The notes beneath the pieces were generated by a model. It was not told where the DNA came from. It did not search any database and was given only the letters and a program-made list of their open reading frames with translations. From Minisyncoccota bacterium (GTDB taxonomy: Bacteria > Patescibacteriota > Minisyncoccia > Phycocordibacterales > CAIZLB01), in contig JAGOSK010000001.1 of NCBI GenBank assembly GCA_018062305.1, positions 19,005 to 83,004 of the forward strand: 64,000 nt of DNA, in the 5' to 3' direction. This document shows, piece by piece, positions 15,039 to 54,381 of the stretch. A program made the position numbers and the translations under genes. Positions within the stretch are counted from its first letter, which is position 1; each line of letters starts with the position of its first letter.

Positions 15039-15314
15039 ATGAACAAAGCCGCATTAGTTGAAAAAGTTCACGGAGTTCTCGGAAGTACAAAAGTACAAGC
15101 TGAGCAAATCGTAGATACAGTTTTCGACAACATCGTCGCAACTTTAAAGAAAGGAGACGAAGTTTCAGTAGCAGGATTTGGTATCTTTTCTGCAAAGACT
15201 CGAGCAGCACGAACAGCGCGAAACCCACGAACAGGTGAAATGGTAAAGGTTGCCGCTATGAAAGTTGCAAAGTTCCGAGCAGCGAAAGCACTCAAAGAAG
15301 CAATCAATAAGTAA
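15039..15314 (+). CDS. hup: DNA-binding protein HU
   Basis: 91 aa with GFGIFSAKTRAARTARNPRTGEMVKV, the HU/IHF arm. Confidence 0.9.
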   Translation: MNKAALVEKVHGVLGSTKVQAEQIVDTVFDNIVATLKKGDEVSVAGFGIFSAKTRAARTARNPRTGEMVKVAAMKVAKFRAAKALKEAINK

Positions 15315-15403
15315 TTTGTTGATACGCTGTTGCGACGCACCATTGCAGTGCGAAGCAAAAAAGTTAATTAGATTCATGACCAATCAATTTGGTCCCACTT
15401 ATT

Positions 15404-15438
15404 AAAATCCCCTCTCAGAAATGAGAGGGGATTTTAAT
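15404..15438. terminator. Bidirectional intrinsic terminator
   Basis: Perfect hairpin AAAATCCCCTCTCA-gaaa-TGAGAGGGGATTTT between the convergent hup and 15468..15797 genes. Confidence 0.7.
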
Positions 15439-15467
15439 TTGGGAATTTATCTTGGATATGACGTATA

Positions 15468-15797
15468 TTAATTGGGTTTAAATTCAGTCCCAGCTCTCTC
15501 AATCACCACACGATCCATTTTCCTATCTTGTATTACTTTGTCTATATTATCAGAATGCGAATTCTTTAACTCGCGATATCTCTCTCCTGCTTTCTCAATT
15601 CTCAAAAGGAGATCGTTAAGTTCAGGAGAATCAACTTTCCCTTCATGGTACAAATCCTGATACAAACCCATGGCCTTATACTGCAAATTCATAACGGTCT
15701 CACTCACATCATTCATTTGCATTTCCAGAAGTGATGACTCAAATTTTAGGAAGTCTTCATCTGCTTGGTTTCTTGGTTTAATAAGTTCGTAATTCAT
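15468..15797 (-). CDS. Hypothetical protein
   Basis: 109-aa ORF with a terminator downstream. No recognisable motif. Confidence 0.4.
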   Translation of the reverse strand: MNYELIKPRNQADEDFLKFESSLLEMQMNDVSETVMNLQYKAMGLYQDLYHEGKVDSPELNDLLLRIEKAGERYRELKNSHSDNIDKVIQDRKMDRVVIERAGTEFKPN

Positions 15798-15827
15798 ATT
15801 TTATTTTATTTTTTATTTGCTAAATGT

Positions 15828-16337
15828 TTATATTAAATCCTTCTCCATAACTATTACGTCTATCTTGGTACCATCATTTTTCTGAGAGTTTCCTTTTAAA
15901 GTTTCCACGATGTAATAGCCATTCTTTTTTGAAAATTCTATTGTCTTCTCTCTGTCCACCACTACATAAAGTCTGATTTTCTTTGCACCTTCTGATACGG
16001 CCCATTTCTCTCTTGCCTCAACGAGCTTTCTTGCAATACCTTTTCCCCTGTATTCTGGTAAAACGCCAAGCTTATGAAGTACTGGAACGCCTGGAAGCTC
16101 ATCATAGAAATTAATGCGGCCCATACCAACAAACCTTTCACCTTCGACAGCGACAAAAGTCTTTCCTTTTTTCTGTAAGCTCTTTCTCCACTCCTCTTCA
16201 GTTCTGGATACTATTTCTGAATATTCATCTACAAACGCTCCAGGATCAGTCTTCAAGAGACTGAGATATAGTTCACGAAGCTCTCTCCATTCTTCCTGTT
16301 TTATCTCTTTAATTTCCATAGAAAAATTATAGCTCAC
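15828..16337 (-). CDS. GNAT-family N-acetyltransferase
   Basis: Acetyl-CoA binding motif LGVLPEYRGKGIARKLV. The start is possibly the internal MEIKEIK. Confidence 0.75.
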   Translation of the reverse strand: MSYNFSMEIKEIKQEEWRELRELYLSLLKTDPGAFVDEYSEIVSRTEEEWRKSLQKKGKTFVAVEGERFVGMGRINFYDELPGVPVLHKLGVLPEYRGKGIARKLVEAREKWAVSEGAKKIRLYVVVDREKTIEFSKKNGYYIVETLKGNSQKNDGTKIDVIVMEKDLI

Positions 16338-16394
16338 TTACAAACTTTGATGCAATGATATAGATAAGGGAATAAGGAGAGTTTATAAAGGGAA

Positions 16395-16440
16395 GGTAAA
16401 GTAAAGTAAAAACACCCAGAGCTCCGAGGAGATGGGTGTT
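16395..16440 (-). terminator. Intrinsic terminator after the 16531..16983 gene
   Basis: Minus-strand hairpin AACACCCA-14nt-TGGGTGTT followed by UUUUACUUUACUUUAC. Confidence 0.5.
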
Positions 16441-16530
16441 GGTTGATTTGCTACACTTTTTACGAACAGTAGCCCTGTTCGGTTTTTGATTCTGTTGACA
16501 AGATGGTTTACTCCACCTCCGTAGCCAATG

Positions 16531-16983
16531 CTACAGTTCGATCAAGACTCGGTCGTCGCTTACCCATACGTAAACTTTTGGATCAGTGAGAGGTCTGCCG
16601 ACTTTGGGGTCGACATCAACAACCATGCAATCCATAACGTTTATGTCGCCTTTGGGAACCGCCCTTCCATGTCTTTCAAGCTTCCAGCTGTCATCCAGAG
16701 CTCCGCGCTTTGGGAGCCATAGAAAACCGAGGAAGTCCTGACGATCAAAGAGGGGTGATTCGCCGCGTGCAATAAGTGAGTAGCATACAAGAGCTCCACT
16801 TTTGCTTTCACGGGGTTCCCAATGGGCTGGAGCGGTGAAGTTCCCATCAGGCCGATCAAACGACCTGATGTATTCCACCACTTCAGGGCCAGCAAGCTTC
16901 ACGCCTTCCAATTGCTCGCCAACCGTCTTACCAGCGACCAGCTTGAGAAGTCCAACACGATTCAGATCAATGTTTGTGCTCAT
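16531..16983 (-). CDS. Hypothetical protein in a GC-rich islet
   Basis: 150-aa ORF at about 50% GC with a terminator downstream. No recognisable family. Confidence 0.45.
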   Translation of the reverse strand: MSTNIDLNRVGLLKLVAGKTVGEQLEGVKLAGPEVVEYIRSFDRPDGNFTAPAHWEPRESKSGALVCYSLIARGESPLFDRQDFLGFLWLPKRGALDDSWKLERHGRAVPKGDINVMDCMVVDVDPKVGRPLTDPKVYVWVSDDRVLIEL

Positions 16984-17040
16984 AGTAAAGATTCCTCACC
17001 TTGGCATACAGTGTCTCCCGAATGGGAGCTTATCAGTTGC

Positions 17041-17091
17041 GTTGGTTGTGGAAATAGAGAAATGGTTAACGTCCCTATTTCCACAACCAAC
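17041..17091. repeat. Perfect 17-bp inverted repeat (hairpin) with a 17-nt loop
   Basis: GTTGGTTGTGGAAATAG ... CTATTTCCACAACCAAC read directly. It is followed by ATTTTATTTT on the plus strand. Confidence 0.5.
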
Positions 17092-17198
17092 ATTTTATTT
17101 TAAAGATCTTCTGTTTCGTCCTTTTGGACTCATCAGTCGGAATTACATTCCGAGACAGAGAGATTTTACGGGTAATCTCGAACCGAGTGGGTTTACCA

Positions 17199-17471
17199 CT
17201 ATTTTGAGGTTTTAGTCTCAAATCCAATTCTCTGCATCCATCGCAGAAGTGCCAAAACCTTGACACGTCCAGCGAAACCTAAGTCGCGGTCTGAGATTCG
17301 GTAAATTTTTCCCGTATCATCGATTTGAAGCTGCCTATCACAAATTGAATCAATGAAATACATACCCTCTTCGCCCAGTCCTTCACGGAGAACTCTTTCA
17401 TAGACGCAACGGCCGCCTTCTGGTATATCCAATCCTTCGATTTCGGAAATGATTTCTGCGATTTTTTTCAT
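17199..17471 (-). CDS. Hypothetical small protein in a GC-rich islet
   Basis: 90-aa ORF. No recognisable motif. Confidence 0.4.
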   Translation of the reverse strand: MKKIAEIISEIEGLDIPEGGRCVYERVLREGLGEEGMYFIDSICDRQLQIDDTGKIYRISDRDLGFAGRVKVLALLRWMQRIGFETKTSK

Positions 17472-17706
17472 AGTATTTGATAGTTGAGTTTGGTTTGTGA
17501 TCCCGCAATCCGCATGACGATATGTCAGCAGGTCAATTGTGGTCTCACTTCCAGACTCAACCCCATACTCTCGATGGCTCGATTTTGAATGAACTCAATC
17601 TGGCAATAGTATAGTGACTATGTCAATACTAGTCCAATCTTAATCAAATATTGTTATTTATTATGATATGTATATCTTTATTTGAAGCCATATTTCTACT
17701 ATTTAT

Positions 17707-17734
17707 ATATTGTTGTCACAAATATTGACAATAT
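17707..17734. promoter_or_regulatory. Palindrome ATATTGTTGTCA-N7-TGACAATAT about 30 bp upstream of the TrmB-family regulator gene; candidate autoregulatory operator
   Basis: The TTGTCA...TGACAA inverted repeat is read directly. Confidence 0.35.
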
Positions 17735-17759
17735 TAGCTATAAGCCGTAGACTACAGTT

Positions 17760-18524
17760 ATGAATGAAATCATCGCCTCTTTAGGTCATATAGGTCTTTC
17801 TGATAAGGAAGCTAAGATATATCTGGCTCTCCTTAAGTTTGGTGAGGCTTCTGTTAGTGATATTGCCGATGAAGCGGGTATAAAGCGCCCTACTGCATAC
17901 ATCATTTTGGATGAGCTGCGTAAAAAAGGCCTCGTGATGAAAATTCCACATGCCAAAAAAGCCCTTTTCCAAGCAAAGACACCAGACGAACTCTATGAGC
18001 AGACAGTCTCCAATATCAATCGCTTTGAGAAAGTTCTACCAAAGCTTCGATCAATGAACCCATCTAAGAAAAATATTAAAACTCTTTATTATGAAGGACT
18101 GGACGGTATGAAAGAAGCCCTATACTACAGACTTGATGATCTCAAAGGTACAACCGATGATGGCTTCTGGGCAAAGGACGATGGCACAGTAACTAAGCCA
18201 GTGATGGACCTCTTCCACAAATGGAATGCTTCTCGGGAGAAAAACAACATACTTATAAGTGGTGTTACACCAGAACATGATTCCACCTTGGAGTTTTTTG
18301 AGAAATATAAGCAATCGCATCAAATCATGAGAGTTCCCCAGACAGACTACAACTCTGATATCTCGATTGAAGTGACAGACAAGTTTGTTAGAATCATCGA
18401 TCCGCACGAATTGAAAGCAATCATCATTGAAAACGATCGTCTTTCAGAAGCACTGAAACAAATATTTAGTTTAGCTAAACGAAACTTTATTAAAAAAGAA
18501 AAAGTAGAAGATCTTTTAGGGTAA
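17760..18524 (+). CDS. TrmB-family transcriptional regulator
   Basis: N-terminal winged helix IGLSDKEAKIYLALLKFGEASVSDIADEAGIKRPTAYIILDELRKKGLV. Confidence 0.75.
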   Translation: MNEIIASLGHIGLSDKEAKIYLALLKFGEASVSDIADEAGIKRPTAYIILDELRKKGLVMKIPHAKKALFQAKTPDELYEQTVSNINRFEKVLPKLRSMNPSKKNIKTLYYEGLDGMKEALYYRLDDLKGTTDDGFWAKDDGTVTKPVMDLFHKWNASREKNNILISGVTPEHDSTLEFFEKYKQSHQIMRVPQTDYNSDISIEVTDKFVRIIDPHELKAIIIENDRLSEALKQIFSLAKRNFIKKEKVEDLLG

Positions 18525-18680
18525 GAGAATCGGTCACGCGTTAAAATTGCGGCACAATTTTCCGCGCGACCCCGCCTCCCTCGTTGCGCTTCGCCGATTA
18601 ACCCTTTATGAGATGCGTAAAAGTACCGACTCACTGCGCAACTTCAGTCCGGCTTTCGATTCTCGCTTATCCAATAGCAA
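18524..18680 (+). repeat. Copy A of a conserved structured ~155-nt element (candidate ncRNA) adjacent to tRNA-Gly
   Basis: Two conserved blocks are shared with copy B at 21606..21760: a block of about 75 nt beginning GAGAATCGGTCACGCG and a block of about 44 nt ending CCGGCTTTCGATTC. It starts on the trmB stop codon and is followed by a terminator. Confidence 0.6.
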
Positions 18681-18691
18681 TAAAAACAAAA

Positions 18692-18719
18692 CACCGCTTA
18701 CGCGGTGCCCTGTTTTTAT
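18692..18719. terminator. Bidirectional intrinsic terminator (CACCGC-TTAC-GCGGTG + T-run)
   Basis: Hairpin with CCCTGTTTTTATT on the plus strand and an A-run on the other side. It separates element A from tRNA-Gly. Confidence 0.65.
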
Positions 18720-18721
18720 TG

Positions 18722-18792
18722 TGCGGGGTAAGAGAATCGAACTCTTGCCAACAGTTTGGAAAACTGTAGTTCTACCATTAAACTAACCCCGC
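18722..18792 (-). tRNA. tRNA-Gly (anticodon UCC); no encoded CCA
   Basis: Cloverleaf folded by hand: acceptor GCGGGGT/ACCCCGC, anticodon arm ACAGT-TTTCCAA-ACTGT, T arm AAGAG-TTCGATT-CTCTT. Confidence 0.8.
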
Positions 18793-20557: not shown

Positions 20558-20593
20558 AGCTTAATATACTTATATAATTTGGCTTAATCTTTG

Positions 20594-20666
20594 TCGGAGC
20601 GCCGGGATTCGAACCCGGAGTCACCTGTTCCCAAAACAGGAATGTTAACCGTTACACCACGCTCCG
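20594..20666 (-). tRNA. tRNA-Pro (anticodon UGG); no encoded CCA
   Basis: C1-G72 acceptor CGGAGCG/CGCTCCG, anticodon arm CCTGT-TTTGGGA-ACAGG, T arm CCGGG-TTCGAAT-CCCGG. Confidence 0.85.
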
Positions 20667-21233: not shown

Positions 21234-21556
21234 TTGAATGTTTCAAGTGTAACAATTACTGTTAAAATCCCGCTCAAAAAGATATGAAGACCTCTCCAAA
21301 AGGGCTTTCTGTTACATGTGTAACCTAAATTAGATATTTTAGGGGAGTTTTTTGATATTTATAGCTGTAAAGTTGAAATATCAATATGTGGCACGTGAAA
21401 CATATACTGAACATTATAAAGACATAAAAGCCATGGCTTTGTGTAGCTAAAATGCTATTACAACCTTATAATAAGCCATATTCTGTCGTGAATAGCCTAA
21501 AATATGATTATTTTATAAGACAGCAATAAATGTCTTTTATACACATATCCACCTAG

Positions 21557-21565
21557 TTATCCACA
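21557..21565 (+). promoter_or_regulatory. Perfect DnaA box TTATCCACA (an 8/9 box TATCCACC sits 7 bp upstream)
   Basis: Read directly. It lies in the AT-rich region upstream of element copy B. Confidence 0.4.
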
Positions 21566-21605
21566 GTTTTGTCGATATCTGTACACAGTGGGTGGGGTAG
21601 TAAGG

Positions 21606-21760
21606 GGAGAGAATCGGTCACGCGTTAAAATTGCTCCACAATTTTCCGCGCGACCCCGCCTCCCTCGTTGCACTTCGCCGATTGGGACACCGCAATAAAA
21701 TACAAAAGTACCGGCTCACTGCGCAACTTCAGTCCGGCTTTCGATTCCTACTTGTCCCAC
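21606..21760 (+). repeat. Copy B of the conserved structured ~155-nt element (candidate ncRNA) adjacent to tRNA-Gly
   Basis: Block 1 and block 2 are near-identical to copy A, with different intervening segments. It is followed by a perfect hairpin terminator. Confidence 0.6.
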
Positions 21761-21769
21761 TGTAAATAC

Positions 21770-21806
21770 AAAAGAGCGCATGTAATATGCGCTCTTTTGT
21801 ATTTAT
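21770..21806. terminator. Bidirectional intrinsic terminator (AAAAGAGCGCAT-gtaata-ATGCGCTCTTTT)
   Basis: Perfect 12-bp stem flanked by A and T runs. Confidence 0.7.
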
Positions 21807-21807
21807 G

Positions 21808-21878
21808 TGCGGGGTAAGAGAATCGAACTCTTGTCCCGTCCTTGGCAAGGACGTATTCTACCACTAAACCAACCCCGC
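21808..21878 (-). tRNA. tRNA-Gly (anticodon GCC); no encoded CCA
   Basis: Same body as the UCC isoacceptor. Anticodon arm CGTCC-TTGCCAA-GGACG. Confidence 0.9.
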
Positions 21879-21901
21879 ATTTATATTATCCACTAACCGT
21901 G

Positions 21902-21973
21902 TGCACCCACCAGGATTCGAACCTAGAATAACGGTTCCGAAGACCGTTGTGATATCCATTTCACCATAGGTGC
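21902..21973 (-). tRNA. tRNA-Arg (anticodon UCG, tentative); no encoded CCA
   Basis: Acceptor GCACCTA/TGGGTGC, anticodon arm ACGGT-CTTCGGA-ACCGT, T arm CTAGG-TTCGAAT-CCTGG. Confidence 0.7.
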
Positions 21974-25180: not shown

Positions 25181-26242
25181 TTACTTATTTCCACCACTCT
25201 GTCTACTATGAAAAGCCTTGTGGATCTCCTTGAGGTGCTTATCGGTGACATGTGTATAGATTTGGGTGGTAGAGATGTTGGCATGACCGAGAAGTGCCTG
25301 TACAGATCGGAGGTCAGCACCGTTTTGTAGTAGGTCTGTAGCAAAACTGTGTCGGATAACGTGCGGAGTTACTTTTTTAGAAATTCCCGCCTTAATTGCA
25401 TAGTATTTTACCAACCGCTCTATAGTCCTAGGGGTCAAATCAAACAATCTAGAGCTCGTCAAACTCTTATTTTTAGCCAGATATTCTTTTATACTTTCTT
25501 TAGCCATGTCAGTTAAAAACACAACACGCACTTTTTCACCTTTTCCTCTCACTGAAAACTCATTTTTCGACATATCGAGGTCGCGAGGTAGGGAACACAA
25601 CTCAGAAACACGAAGACCTGTTGAGTAGAAAAGCTCTAAAATGGCCTTATCTCTAAGTTTCTTTTGCTCATCCTTCTCTTGGCTTGGACCGCTAAGGAAA
25701 CGCTCGAGCTCTTCAGAACTGATCAAATCAAGTGATCTCTCAGGGACTTTGGCAAGCTCTATATTGTCTGCGGGAAGTGATTTTATAGAACGTCTAGTCA
25801 GGTATTTGAGAAAAGACCGTAAGGCAATCAGATAGTAATTTTGCGTTCTTTTCTTGAGAGTTTCACCATTTATGCTTGTTTTCGACTTTCGACTATGGCT
25901 TATTTCCGAGGTATTTGAAGTTATTCCTAGAGGTTTTCTATTTAGCCAAAGGCGATATTCTCGAAGTAGATCAGGGTTTAATTCTTCAGGATAGACCTCC
26001 GGAACACCCTTATTTTTTGATACAAAGTCTAGAAAAGTGCTCAAATACCTGTCGTAGTTTTCAACAGTCTTAAGCGAACGGCCCTTCTCGATTTCGATAT
26101 ATTCGAGAAAGTGACGCTTGAGCACAAGGAGAGTAAGATTTAAAGTAGAAGAAGGTGCTGAGGTTGATGCCGATGGTGTTGAAGTAGGAAGTTTGTTTTG
26201 CGACATATCGATATAAGTATACCAGACCTCTTGAACAAGCAA
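25181..26242 (-). CDS. Tyrosine recombinase, XerC/XerD family
   Basis: C-terminal HVIRHSFATDLL...LLGHANISTTQIYTHV catalytic region (R-H-R-Y). The N-terminal ~40 aa are low complexity and the start may be internal. Confidence 0.8.
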   Translation of the reverse strand: MLVQEVWYTYIDMSQNKLPTSTPSASTSAPSSTLNLTLLVLKRHFLEYIEIEKGRSLKTVENYDRYLSTFLDFVSKNKGVPEVYPEELNPDLLREYRLWLNRKPLGITSNTSEISHSRKSKTSINGETLKKRTQNYYLIALRSFLKYLTRRSIKSLPADNIELAKVPERSLDLISSEELERFLSGPSQEKDEQKKLRDKAILELFYSTGLRVSELCSLPRDLDMSKNEFSVRGKGEKVRVVFLTDMAKESIKEYLAKNKSLTSSRLFDLTPRTIERLVKYYAIKAGISKKVTPHVIRHSFATDLLQNGADLRSVQALLGHANISTTQIYTHVTDKHLKEIHKAFHSRQSGGNK

Positions 26243-51646: not shown

Positions 51647-52993
51647 TTGTTCATTATGGATAGCAAAACTTTATGGGATTCTGTTTTAGTAAAGATTGAG
51701 ATTGATGTTACTAAAGCTACGTTTTCTACTTGGTTTAAAGATATCTACATCTCTAAGATTGATTCAGGTACAGTATATCTCGCTGTTCCAAACACTTTCG
51801 TCAAAGACTGGCTTACAAAAAGATTTCACAAGCAGATTCTAGAGAATCTAAGGACACTCCTTGAGTCTGTTCGATCTATTGAATATATTATTGCCCCTAT
51901 CAACAAAAAGAAAGAGGATTTTGTGACAGAAATACCTAGTCCAAACAAAGAATTACCACTAAATTCACTTTATATTGATCCAAGTGACAACCTTAACCCT
52001 CGATATACATTCGAAACTTTTGTTGTAGGACCCTTCAACGAGCTTGCATACGCTGCTTCACAAGCAATTATTAAAAAACCTGTTGCTTACAACCCACTTT
52101 TCTTTTATGGAAACACAGGACTCGGTAAAACACACCTCATGCAAGCAGTAGGAAACCACATTAAAAATCACCACAAAGAGAAGCGTATTCATTATGTAAC
52201 TTCTGAGCGTTTTACTATCGACTACATCAACTCAGTTCAATCAAACAAGGTAAATAATTTCAAAGAGAAGTACCGTAAGTATGATGTGTTTATTATGGAC
52301 GACATACAATTTCTTTCAAACAAGGAGAAGACGCAGGAGGAACTTTTTCACCTCTTCAACTACATGTACGACAGCAACAAGCAGATTATCTTTTCATCAG
52401 ATGTACACCCAAACTATCTGCAAAACCTAGAAGATCGCCTAAAATCAAGGTTTTTAGCGGGTATGATCATTGATATTTCACCACTTGATACCGAATCAAA
52501 GATTGCTATCCTCCAGACAAAATCTCAGATGAACAACTTCAACCTCCTACCAGAGGCGGCTTACTATATAGCTTCTATCGTCCATGGGAGTATCAGAGAA
52601 CTTGAAGGAACTCTCAATGCTGTTATTTGCCAATCACAACTCAAAGGGAGAGATCTTTCATTAAATGAAATCAAACAACTAACAAAAGATTCTACCAAAC
52701 CGCAAAAAACAATCTCAGTAAAAGATGTTGTGAAAGCTGTATCAGCTTTTTATAATATTGAAGAAGACAGTATCTACAATAAAACAAGGAGGCAAGAGGT
52801 TGTGAAGCCAAGACAACTCACGATGTATATATTAAGAGAGGATTATAATATTTCTTTTCCCTCTATAGGACAAAAACTTGGTAATAGAGATCACACAACA
52901 GTAATGCACTCATGCGATAAAATTAAAAACGAAATAAAAACAAACCCAGAACTTATAAATGAAATAAATCAAATAAGAGCCCTTATACAATAA
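51647..52993 (+). CDS. dnaA: Chromosomal replication initiator protein DnaA
   Basis: AAA+ Walker A GNTGLGKTHL, Walker B IMDDIQF, and the C-terminal DNA-binding domain (GQKLGNRDHTTVMHSC). Confidence 0.9.
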   Translation: MFIMDSKTLWDSVLVKIEIDVTKATFSTWFKDIYISKIDSGTVYLAVPNTFVKDWLTKRFHKQILENLRTLLESVRSIEYIIAPINKKKEDFVTEIPSPNKELPLNSLYIDPSDNLNPRYTFETFVVGPFNELAYAASQAIIKKPVAYNPLFFYGNTGLGKTHLMQAVGNHIKNHHKEKRIHYVTSERFTIDYINSVQSNKVNNFKEKYRKYDVFIMDDIQFLSNKEKTQEELFHLFNYMYDSNKQIIFSSDVHPNYLQNLEDRLKSRFLAGMIIDISPLDTESKIAILQTKSQMNNFNLLPEAAYYIASIVHGSIRELEGTLNAVICQSQLKGRDLSLNEIKQLTKDSTKPQKTISVKDVVKAVSAFYNIEEDSIYNKTRRQEVVKPRQLTMYILREDYNISFPSIGQKLGNRDHTTVMHSCDKIKNEIKTNPELINEINQIRALIQ

Positions 52994-53274
52994 AGGACAT
53001 TTTTATTTGTGGATAAGTCTGTGGATAGTGTGTATATATCGTTAAAATTTCTGTGAATAAGTCTGTTTATAAAAATGTATAATTTGGGAATAAAAGGTGT
53101 AAAAATCACTTATTCAAAAAGTTATTAAAAGTTATTAAAAAACAATCCACAATTTAACTTCAAAAAATATTTTATTTTGAGTCTATTTTTATCCAAATTT
53201 TAGAGTTATCCACTTTTCCACCACCCTAATAGTAGTAATAGTTTTTAATTTAAAAATAAGATAAGATACATACA
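52994..53274. promoter_or_regulatory. oriC-type region between dnaA and dnaN
   Basis: DnaA boxes TGTGGATAA (53029), TGTGGATAG (53041), TGTGAATAA (53074) and TTATCCAC (53226). The AAGTTATTAAA 11-mer occurs twice in tandem. Very AT-rich. Confidence 0.6.
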
Positions 53275-54381
53275 ATGAAACTAGAAACAATCAGAGAACG
53301 TCTAGTCGACGCAATACAGAAAGCTGAAAAGGTCACTAGTAAGAACGCAACCTTACCTGTCCTTAAGTGTGTCCTTTTGGAAGCAAAGGACAATAGTCTA
53401 CTAATAAGGTCAACAAACCTCGATATAGGACTAGAGATAAAAATACCCGTGAAGGTTCAAGAAGAGGGGTCTACGGCTATACCTGGAAATATCCTTTCAA
53501 ACTTCATTTCCCAGTTGGGTGGAGAAAAGTCTATTACCCTTGAGTCAAAGGATGGTACCTTATCTGTAAATTCATCTAAAAACAGTACAACTATTAAATC
53601 CTTTGCTACTGACGATTATCCGACTATTCCAAAAGTTAATGAAGATACCTCTAAAAGCTTCAAAATTAGCGCTACAAGCTTGATTTCTGGTTTAAAGGCG
53701 GTTTGGTACAGTTCAGCTACTTCGACTATTAAACCGGAGCTTTCTAGTGTTCGGATGTATCCTCTTGATGGAAACCTAGTTTTTGTAGCAACTGATGGTT
53801 TTCGTCTTGCTGAAAAGCAGATCCCGGCTAAAAACCTCCCTGATTTTGTTCATGTCTTGATTCCAGTTCGTAATGCTGCTGAGATAATACGTATTTTTGA
53901 TGGAATTGATGAGGAAATCACTGTTTTTATTGATGATAATCAAATTGCTGTGGTTTCAAGTGATATTTATCTCATTTCTCGTACTATAGAGGGTAATTTT
54001 CCTGATTATAAGGCGATTATTCCTAAAGAGTTTGTGACAGAAGCAGTGATACTAAAGCAAGATCTCTCAAATGCACTTAAAATAAGTACTATTTTTAGTG
54101 ATGCATTCTTCCATGTGAAGTTTTTGGTTAATCCTGGTGAAAAAAAACTGCAAATTACTACTAAAAACAATGAGATTGGAGAGAGTTCAACAAGTATAGT
54201 AGCAACTCTTTCTGGTCAAGATATAGATATTAACTTCAATTATCGATATATAAACGATGCTATGGTTACCTTGAACTCAGATAGTCTTAGTTTTTCATTT
54301 AGTGGAAGTAATAAACCTCTCGTTATAAAATCAGTAGGAGATTCTAGTTTTACATATCTTGTGATGCCTATGAATCGATAA
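53275..54381 (+). CDS. dnaN: DNA polymerase III beta sliding clamp
   Basis: 368 aa. The N-terminus MKLETIRERLVDAIQKAEKV...LPVLKCVLLEA is typical of DnaN. Confidence 0.9.
   Translation: MKLETIRERLVDAIQKAEKVTSKNATLPVLKCVLLEAKDNSLLIRSTNLDIGLEIKIPVKVQEEGSTAIPGNILSNFISQLGGEKSITLESKDGTLSVNSSKNSTTIKSFATDDYPTIPKVNEDTSKSFKISATSLISGLKAVWYSSATSTIKPELSSVRMYPLDGNLVFVATDGFRLAEKQIPAKNLPDFVHVLIPVRNAAEIIRIFDGIDEEITVFIDDNQIAVVSSDIYLISRTIEGNFPDYKAIIPKEFVTEAVILKQDLSNALKISTIFSDAFFHVKFLVNPGEKKLQITTKNNEIGESSTSIVATLSGQDIDINFNYRYINDAMVTLNSDSLSFSFSGSNKPLVIKSVGDSSFTYLVMPMNR

Follow-up and report, generated by a model that had tools for sequence, protein, structure and literature searches.

Patescibacteria have tiny genomes and are thought to be poor in mobile DNA. 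CIMEs are att-flanked elements without an integrase that lie at the 3' end of tRNA genes and for which an enzyme must presumably be provided in trans; they are deletion derivatives of several kilobases, and we know of no structural constraint acting on them. PATEs of the IS200/IS605 type have subterminal hairpins, generate no duplication and insert 3' of a short motif at many sites. Elements that have integrated into tRNA genes are marked by a regenerated tRNA gene together with a displaced 3' fragment; T-stem sites are frequent in this group, as are tandem arrays (PMC4383910). In the CTX-phage attP(+) site used by XerCD and in integron attC sites, structure rather than sequence is conserved, pairing is strand-specific, and the target site is re-created in duplex form by an imperfect hairpin (PMC3442271, PMC4246890, PMC5027507). 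The group I introns of patescibacterial tRNA genes interrupt the anticodon loop, need splicing and match the Rfam group I models.

Here we describe a folded element that occurs twice, as copies A and B, in the 64-kb window, by which we mean the whole stretch of DNA that was analysed. We consider it probable that both are miniature, protein-less folded elements which insert in the T-loop of tRNA genes of Patescibacteria, between nt 55 and 56, and regenerate the tRNA. We document their anatomy, the covariation of their structure, their presence, absence and decay states at syntenic sites, their occurrence at five tRNA species and a tandem double insertion.

Like the islands and prophages that use tyrosine integrases (Islander), the element regenerates the split tRNA gene and carries the displaced 3' fragment as a direct repeat at its far end; the crossover would lie in the T-arm, occupied and empty sites as well as a tandem are present, and its distribution among relatives is patchy. 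Unlike these elements, which measure kilobases and encode an integrase, it spans only ~200 bp without an integrase or any other gene, its core is conserved and folded, with covariation, and the attachment segment is present in it as an inverted copy, which we call the near strand. The ~200 bp scale, the lack of genes, the conserved strand-specific fold and the inverted attachment-segment copy are what is new here, and we found no description of such elements in the literature. With CIMEs and other non-autonomous integrative elements it shares attL/attR-type boundaries at the tRNA 3' end and the lack of recombination genes, but here several compact families have one architecture.

The likeness to attP(+) and attC is an analogy only: a hypothetical circular form is predicted to adopt a three-armed fold in which the near strand pairs with the repeat; what is targeted here is a tRNA T-loop and not dif or attI, and the integron core motif GTTRRRY is unmatched by the T-loop sequence GTTCGAT. 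Like MITEs, Correia and RPE elements and the IS200/IS605-derived PATEs, the element is small, non-coding, hairpin-forming and sporadic, and would depend on an enzyme in trans. The constant terminal inverted repeats and the fixed short target duplication of MITEs were not found in it: its terminal inverted sequences vary with the host tRNA (Gly, Gln, Trp, Ser), its flanking repeat consists of 8-20 nt of tRNA, and, unlike MITEs and small palindromic repeats, it occupies one position in tRNA genes only, with two copies in the window. With regard to PATEs, hairpins (H1 and P5) lie near both ends of the element, and its pairing is strand-biased; copies occur only in tRNA T-loops, at two per 64 kb, and no TnpA or TnpB was present in the ORFs scanned. 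With the patescibacterial group I introns it has in common the phylum, tRNA genes as hosts and a small, structured, sporadic and selfish character (PMC13011429), but it leaves the tRNA uninterrupted and matches no Rfam family.

Anatomy of the two copies

The two copies and the four tRNA genes of the window, which all lie on the minus strand, are arranged as follows:

18519-18676, minus: copy A, with the tRNA repeat DR2 (18519-18532), hairpin P5 (18532-18571), the P2-P4 arm (18574-18653) and the near strand (18657-18676)
18678-18721: H1 hairpin of copy A, unrelated to that of copy B
18721-18792, minus: tRNA-Gly(UCC), host gene of copy A
20593-20666, minus: tRNA-Pro
21604-21616, minus: DR2 of copy B, a decayed direct repeat of the tRNA-Gly 3' part from T-loop C56
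21616-21655, minus: P5 hairpin of copy B, 16 pairs, with an invariant G-U
21658-21738, minus: P2-P2b-P3-P4 arm of copy B, with the conserved purine-rich internal loops GAAAGCCGGACUGAAG and CGAGGGAGGC
21742-21762, minus: near strand of copy B (CAGUGGGACAAGUAGGAAUCG), able to pair with the 3' part of the tRNA
21763-21805: H1 hairpin of copy B, A-tract, GC stem and T-tract with perfect 19-nt arms
21807-21878, minus: tRNA-Gly(GCC), whose nt 56-76 (21808-21825) are DR1, the regenerated 3' end
21901-21973, minus: tRNA-Arg

The ~160-nt element thus occupies 18519-18676 (A) and 21604-21762 (B), and the cores are 96% identical. Compared as repeats (18517-18672 and ~21601-21757), the copies share 91-93% identity in two blocks with a variable stretch between them. 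This similarity far exceeds chance and upholds the original prediction of two related copies beside tRNA-Gly(GCC) and tRNA-Gly(UCC). A covariance model built from an alignment of seven full copies scored 165 and 174 bits for copies A and B and gave zero further matches in the 64-kb window. Each copy adjoins one tRNA-Gly gene, with a perfect or near-perfect A-tract/T-tract hairpin in between, and the tRNAs beside elements are complete (62-72 bits) in uninterrupted genes. The hairpin of copy B is perfect, as had been noted, although its arms measure 19 nt and not 12, and it is terminator-like in either direction. H1 travels with the element, because the same type of hairpin is found in two related copies (L045 and L050) at the other tRNA-Gly site. 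The copy A hairpin is nearly identical to that of L058, though the core of L058 differs and belongs to a second, R2 type.

On the tRNA strand, every copy ends in an invariant GUGAC, followed by DR2, which repeats the neighbouring tRNA from T-loop C56 on and is identical to it over 8-20 nt. All 14 of 14 nt match in copy A, where DR2 overlaps the stop codon of a TrmB-like ORF. In copy B, the 3' strand of P5 terminates in the invariant GUGAC|C and abuts DR2, which reads CGAUUCUCU-CCCC against CGAUUCUCUUACCCC in the tRNA, i.e., 9 nt, an indel and CCCC. The repeat extends over 15 nt in L050 and in the copy at the GCC site of L049, and over 7 + 8 nt in L042. DR2 tracks the tRNA of each host, both in the T-stem (CUCUU vs CCCUU) and in the acceptor ends of tRNA-Gly, -Gln, -Trp and -Ser. 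We interpret DR2 of copy B as the original tRNA 3' fragment, displaced. A second A/T-tract hairpin after DR2 in L042 and at the GCC site of L049 is read as the old tRNA terminator.

[quoted passage not shown] The same holds in 9 of 9 copies: the near strand fits the true tRNA 3' end better than DR2, which indicates that DR2 is decaying while the near strand is kept. The idea that the near strand tracks DR2 was rejected on this account. Changes away from the tRNA sequence are common to the near strand and DR2 in L034 and L042, a hint that the in-place helix P1 may matter too. In copy A, GGGTAAGAGAATCG (18519-18532) pairs with CGATTCTCGCTTATCC (18657-18672), which is the pairing of the 3' spacer with the 5' end of the element that had been described for this copy.

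The two tRNA-Gly genes had been called near-identical outside the anticodon arm. They are identical from position 47 through the 3' end, and of the 17 differences among 71 positions, 13 fall in the anticodon arm and variable region, leaving 4 in the D arm. The identical 3' thirds may reflect element-linked homogenisation, the sample being small. We rejected the proposal that a unit of tRNA plus element was duplicated as a whole: both isoacceptors keep their syntenic positions in all relatives, whether the element is there or not, the hairpins of A and B are unrelated, and the genes differ at these 17 positions. The tRNA-Gly genes are old syntenic isoacceptors.

Fold, strand and coding potential

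Related copies were gathered from other genomes, and the seven full ones were aligned and folded with RNAalifold. The consensus consists of the closing helix P1, the arm P2-P2b-P3-P4 with its purine-rich internal loops, and the long hairpin P5. Standard pairs make up 95.9% of the cells, and both sides have changed at 15 pairs among the 7 copies; P5 has compensatory changes at 7 pairs. None of 500 shuffles reached the observed values, and slid controls were 32-55% paired. Covariation in the seven copies supports the predicted fold. The tip of P4 (~21683-21709 in copy B) is variable and almost missing in L034.

On the tRNA (minus) strand, 26 cells are G-U and 4 are A-C, a strand bias that is modest when independent positions are counted (10 vs 3). 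Folding energies are -58/-61 kcal/mol for the minus strand and -47/-44 kcal/mol for the plus strand, so that the minus-strand fold is 11-17 kcal/mol better in each copy. The excess of G-U over A-C identifies the tRNA strand as the folding strand. On that strand, the hairpin follows the tRNA and precedes the element, and it is therefore not a 3' terminator of the element.

Both results speak against the original prediction of an independent plus-strand RNA of ~190 nt, which would run from the AT-rich, DnaA-box-containing region to a terminator at 21770-21806. It is true that the hairpin has a T-run on both strands and that no plus-strand gene lies upstream of copy B, where, as had been stated, there is no ORF of ≥50 aa. 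Yet transcription of the plus strand would forfeit the energy difference given above and turn G-U pairs into A-C mismatches, copy A begins inside the stop codon of a plus-strand gene, no promoter-like site was seen on the plus strand, and the DnaA-box motif is independent of the element. We therefore give this model almost no credence, and the hairpin that it took for a terminator of the element sits between tRNA and element on their shared strand. The broader claim of a conserved, structurally constrained element tied to a tRNA gene was borne out, and Rfam contains no family for it. As to the variable spacers, TGGGACA (21683-21689) does pair with TGTCCCA in the lowest-energy fold of copy B, the latter lying at 21753-21759 and not at ~21744. 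This fold is just 2.3 kcal/mol better than the consensus fold, and the pairing is absent from the closest relatives, L050 (98% core identity) and L045, whose lowest-energy folds have the consensus architecture; covariation of the spacers could thus not be upheld.

No family of Rfam 15 covers the element at gathering scores or with E up to 10. No match overlaps 18517-18677, and those in 21601-21762 are weak, chance-level matches (E up to 10) that clip the hairpin-side ends; the real matches in the region are the tRNAs alone. Intron_gpI gave no match at the element with E up to 10. Promoter-like sites were not seen beside the element on either strand, and the sole T-run hairpin sits 5' of the element on the folding strand. 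A promoter and terminator of its own, bracketing a conserved RNA as in a stand-alone small RNA gene, were thus not found.

These data bear on two further readings at the RNA level. According to the first, the element would be a functional tRNA-linked RNA: transcripts reading through from the tRNA promoter would yield a stable ~160-nt RNA that serves the cell. P1 would imitate the acceptor/T-stem minihelix of the adjacent tRNA, so that RNase P and RNase Z could release this RNA. The strong covariation, the invariant unpaired purine-rich segments and the position on the tRNA strand, always downstream of the tRNA, fit this model, as do the ~12 pairs of P1, the resemblance of the near strand to tRNA positions 44-53 and the changes on both strands of P1 in L034 and L042. 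Against it stand the terminator-like hairpin between tRNA and element, the absence of a promoter-like site, and the decay of DR2, the supposed 3' strand of P1, while the real tRNA end is in every copy the better match for the near strand. Together with the distribution described below, this makes a functional RNA rather unlikely in our view, although the model is compatible with mobility.

According to the second, a new ribozyme- or intron-like RNA would once have resided in the T-loop, with the ancestral order tRNA 44-53, core, tRNA 56-76, and would spread selfishly through copying of RNA into DNA. Together, the near strand and DR2 have the appearance of a partial tRNA copy broken at T-loop 54/55, the core is highly conserved, and tRNA genes of Patescibacteria often contain group I introns (PMC13011429). 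No interruption is present in the tRNA gene, however, no Rfam ribozyme or intron matches with E up to 10, and no reverse transcriptase is linked to the element. Group II introns are the usual bacterial carriers of reverse transcriptase. A cited survey detected none of them in Patescibacteria. We judge spread of this kind to be highly unlikely.

No integrase gene and no consistent reading frame is contained in the ~200-bp element. An open frame runs through it opposite the tRNA strand in all copies (window 18547-18786, plus strand), encodes the motif DPASLVALRR and is occasionally called as a gene, e.g., P0050. It loses register across the indels of P4, and the conserved blocks have no third-codon-position variation between copies; a coding function was therefore rejected. 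Used as bait in a protein database, the frame retrieved one spurious ORF, which led to locus L057.

Occurrence at syntenic sites and at other tRNA genes

Syntenic loci were obtained via homologues of the flanking protease. The shared order is ClpP, RNase Y, HU, a variable block, tRNA-Gly-UCC, protease, RNHCP, tRNA-Pro, UPF0102, tRNA-Gly-GCC, tRNA-Arg and CCA enzyme. Within this framework, the two tRNA-Gly sites differ in occupancy:

UCC site, full element: window, L045, L050 (R1 type); L049, L058 (divergent R2 type)
UCC site, miniature: L044
UCC site, relic: L054
UCC site, empty: L046, L048, L055
GCC site, full element: window, L049
GCC site, miniature: none
GCC site, relic: L055 (hairpin + 7 nt)
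GCC site, empty: L046-48, L050, L052, L058

Locus L056 was too short to be informative. The expectation that the element always accompanies tRNA-Gly is contradicted by these syntenic close relatives, in which it is absent or a relic. For a functional RNA, the empty, relic and miniature states would have to be put down to frequent loss. The R2 core family, at L058 3126-3267 and L049 2629-2772 (both minus strand), is divergent and scores 36-53 bits with the R1 model. The miniature at L044 2671-2780 (minus strand) comprises ~60 nt and is reduced to the near strand, a single hairpin and GUGAC with the repeat.

Outside the syntenic set, the core follows tRNA-Gln in a metagenome-assembled Parcubacteria genome (L034) and tRNA-Trp in a soil metagenome contig (L042). 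At L057, a tRNA-Ser is followed by a hairpin, an element that we call X, a perfect 20-nt tRNA-Ser 3' end, a second hairpin, an R1-family element and a decayed repeat. This layout would be the product expected of successive insertions at one T-loop position. Element X (L057 2318-2452, minus strand) has ~115 nt, is non-coding and unrelated in sequence, and has a similar architecture (z = -6.4): its closing helix copies the acceptor and T stems of tRNA-Ser, two arms follow, and a terminal hairpin abuts C56. In total, this compact architecture was found at five tRNA species, and the elements that have it fall into at least three sequence families. The model of a functional RNA offers no role for the tandem double insertion or for the second A/T-tract hairpin after DR2.

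The searches recovered about a dozen independent copies. Both large scans relied on exact patterns, and the family is therefore certainly under-counted: the genome scan returned 33 matches, of which one was real (L034), and the metagenome scan 3, again with one real match (L042). Three scans of viral contigs yielded nothing, a phage search gave just one chance A/T-tract match and a plasmid search zero. None of the dozen or so copies is an autonomous relative that carries genes, and no extra repeats bounding a larger island were found.

The same distribution weighs on the possibility that the copies are leftover attP arms between attL and attR of prophages or islands that have lost their interior, their conserved sequence being protein-binding DNA. 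Such remnants would match the signature of integration in tRNA genes (PMC4383910) and the size of a typical attP, and the block of genes between HU and tRNA-Gly(UCC) does vary among relatives. Independent deletions would not repeat one exact architecture at five tRNA species and in at least three families, however, and neither compensatory changes nor a strand-specific G-U excess is expected of duplex protein-binding sites. We regard this origin as unlikely.

The similarity of the elements does not match the relatedness of their hosts. The core of copy B is 98% identical to L050, at the other Gly site, and 66% identical to the copy at the same GCC site in L049; RNase Y, by contrast, is 90% identical between the window organism and the host of L049 and 86.5% identical for the host of L050. 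The whole copy B unit, including hairpin and loops, is 92% identical to that of L050, whereas fourfold-degenerate sites of RNase Y are at 51%. Judged from these identities, the divergence of the element is much younger than that of its hosts, which points to movement between genomes. The disagreement also speaks against a functional RNA. The G+C content of the elements is 46-59% and that of the hosts 36-53%.

Copy A has a hairpin and near strand in common with the R2 elements of L058 and L049 but a core 96% identical to that of copy B; intragenomic gene conversion is the simplest explanation. At L005 (1595-1873), a TrmB gene and the start of an A-type element are joined to a B-type remainder and tRNA-Gly(GCC), and the contig is either a recombinant or an assembly chimera across a 35-nt identical block. 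Of the Logan contigs shown, the others with TrmB (L001-L004, L006, L007) terminate within the element. At the UCC locus of L047 (1676-1747), a tRNA has the anticodon GCC and a mismatched anticodon stem, and it represents either a variant allele or a chimeric assembly.

A possible route of insertion, and the genomic surroundings

The tRNA-integration signature, the fold and the inverted attachment copy lead us to propose a non-autonomous T-loop element that is mobilised in trans, possibly as a folded single strand. Since the element has no enzyme of its own, we infer the mobilisation step. Entry would take place by Campbell-type site-specific recombination (or recombination at short homology) within nt 56-76, via a circular form of ~207 nt and with a recombinase supplied in trans. 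The inserted unit, ~190-215 bp including the hairpin, would displace the old tRNA 3' end, giving the following layout on the tRNA strand: tRNA nt 1-55; the element's own nt 56-76; the A/T-tract hairpin H1 as terminator; the near strand, complementary to nt 56-72; the P2-P4 arm; P5, ending in GUGAC; and DR2 as the displaced fragment. Because the element would supply its own nt 56-76, the host tRNA would stay intact and DR2 would be free to decay.

The hypothetical excised circle, from C56 through GUGAC (207-209 nt), is predicted to fold into three arms, one of which is the tRNA-like segment paired with the near strand and capped by the hairpin. At the junction of such a circle or of a tandem, ...AACGCGTGAC would be joined to CGATTCTCTTACCCCGCAC and the hairpin (GTGAC to the full CGATTC...GCAC). 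We favour a folded single-stranded intermediate because of the strand bias of the pairing and because complementarity to the tRNA 3' part persists in the near strand while DR2 decays. Paired with the repeat and stacked on P5, the near strand would then rebuild a duplex attachment site, speculatively in the manner of CTX-phage attP(+) or integron attC. As a point against the proposed T-loop insertion element, a double-stranded DNA circle of ~200 bp would be unusually small. Neither an excised form nor a polymorphism of empty and filled sites in a single species was seen.

Going one step further, the copies might represent a new class of protein-less minimal mobile elements that target tRNA genes by their own nucleic-acid fold, an idea that we put forward only tentatively and consider improbable as it stands. 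A circular single strand of ~207 nt, its near strand paired with the tRNA-like segment and this helix stacked on P5, would present a mimic of the T-arm duplex to a host recombinase of the Xer type; alternatively, the near strand would guide the element by pairing with the target. For the invariant purine-rich core, a role as a novel catalytic or protein-recruiting RNA is equally conceivable.

If the proposed T-loop insertion element is real, it would be among the smallest site-specific mobile elements known, riding harmlessly in essential tRNA genes. Its spread between genomes with saturated synonymous sites would make it a marker of recent gene flow in uncultured lineages, and it may explain how the 3' thirds of tRNA genes become identical within one genome. 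For annotation, it is a warning that structured and conserved "RNA genes" next to tRNAs may be scars of insertion. Should the fold direct targeting, the element could be a compact, reprogrammable insertion module.

No recombinase linked to the element was seen in the material searched. The window contains one Xer-type tyrosine recombinase gene (25181-26239, minus strand; ~225-245 bits with the XerC/XerD/XerA models), which lies beside exonuclease III, 3.4 kb from the element, and is the sole recombinase among the ORFs scanned. It is probably a housekeeping gene.

The perfect DnaA box noted upstream of copy B, TTATCCACA, is present at 21557-21565. Given the minus-strand fold, the AT-rich region around it is not the element's promoter region. 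The box is part of an intergenic motif, AAAACTGTGGATAACTnAGTGGATATGTGTATAAAAGACA (window 21535-21575), which is conserved in all relatives, with or without the element, and could be a DnaA-regulated site. Further along the window, dnaA (51647-52993) and dnaN (53275-54381) flank a cluster of DnaA boxes (53008-53214) that is likely to be oriC. A link between the element and DnaA or the origin was rejected, as the motif is kept where the element is absent and the likely oriC lies at dnaA-dnaN near 53 kb.

Between HU and tRNA-Gly(UCC) lies a block (window 15300-18520 and its equivalents in L044-L058) whose gene content differs in every syntenic relative: a NUDIX gene; genes for a beta-lactamase, a response regulator and TrmB; RhuM; CBU_0592; or nothing. 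It is a hot spot at the 3' side of the tRNA. A type III hammerhead ribozyme (17108-17161, minus strand) is located in this variable block, downstream of tRNA-Gly(UCC) and flanked by two small unknown ORFs; it has a full catalytic core and scores 50 bits against a gathering score of 48.5.
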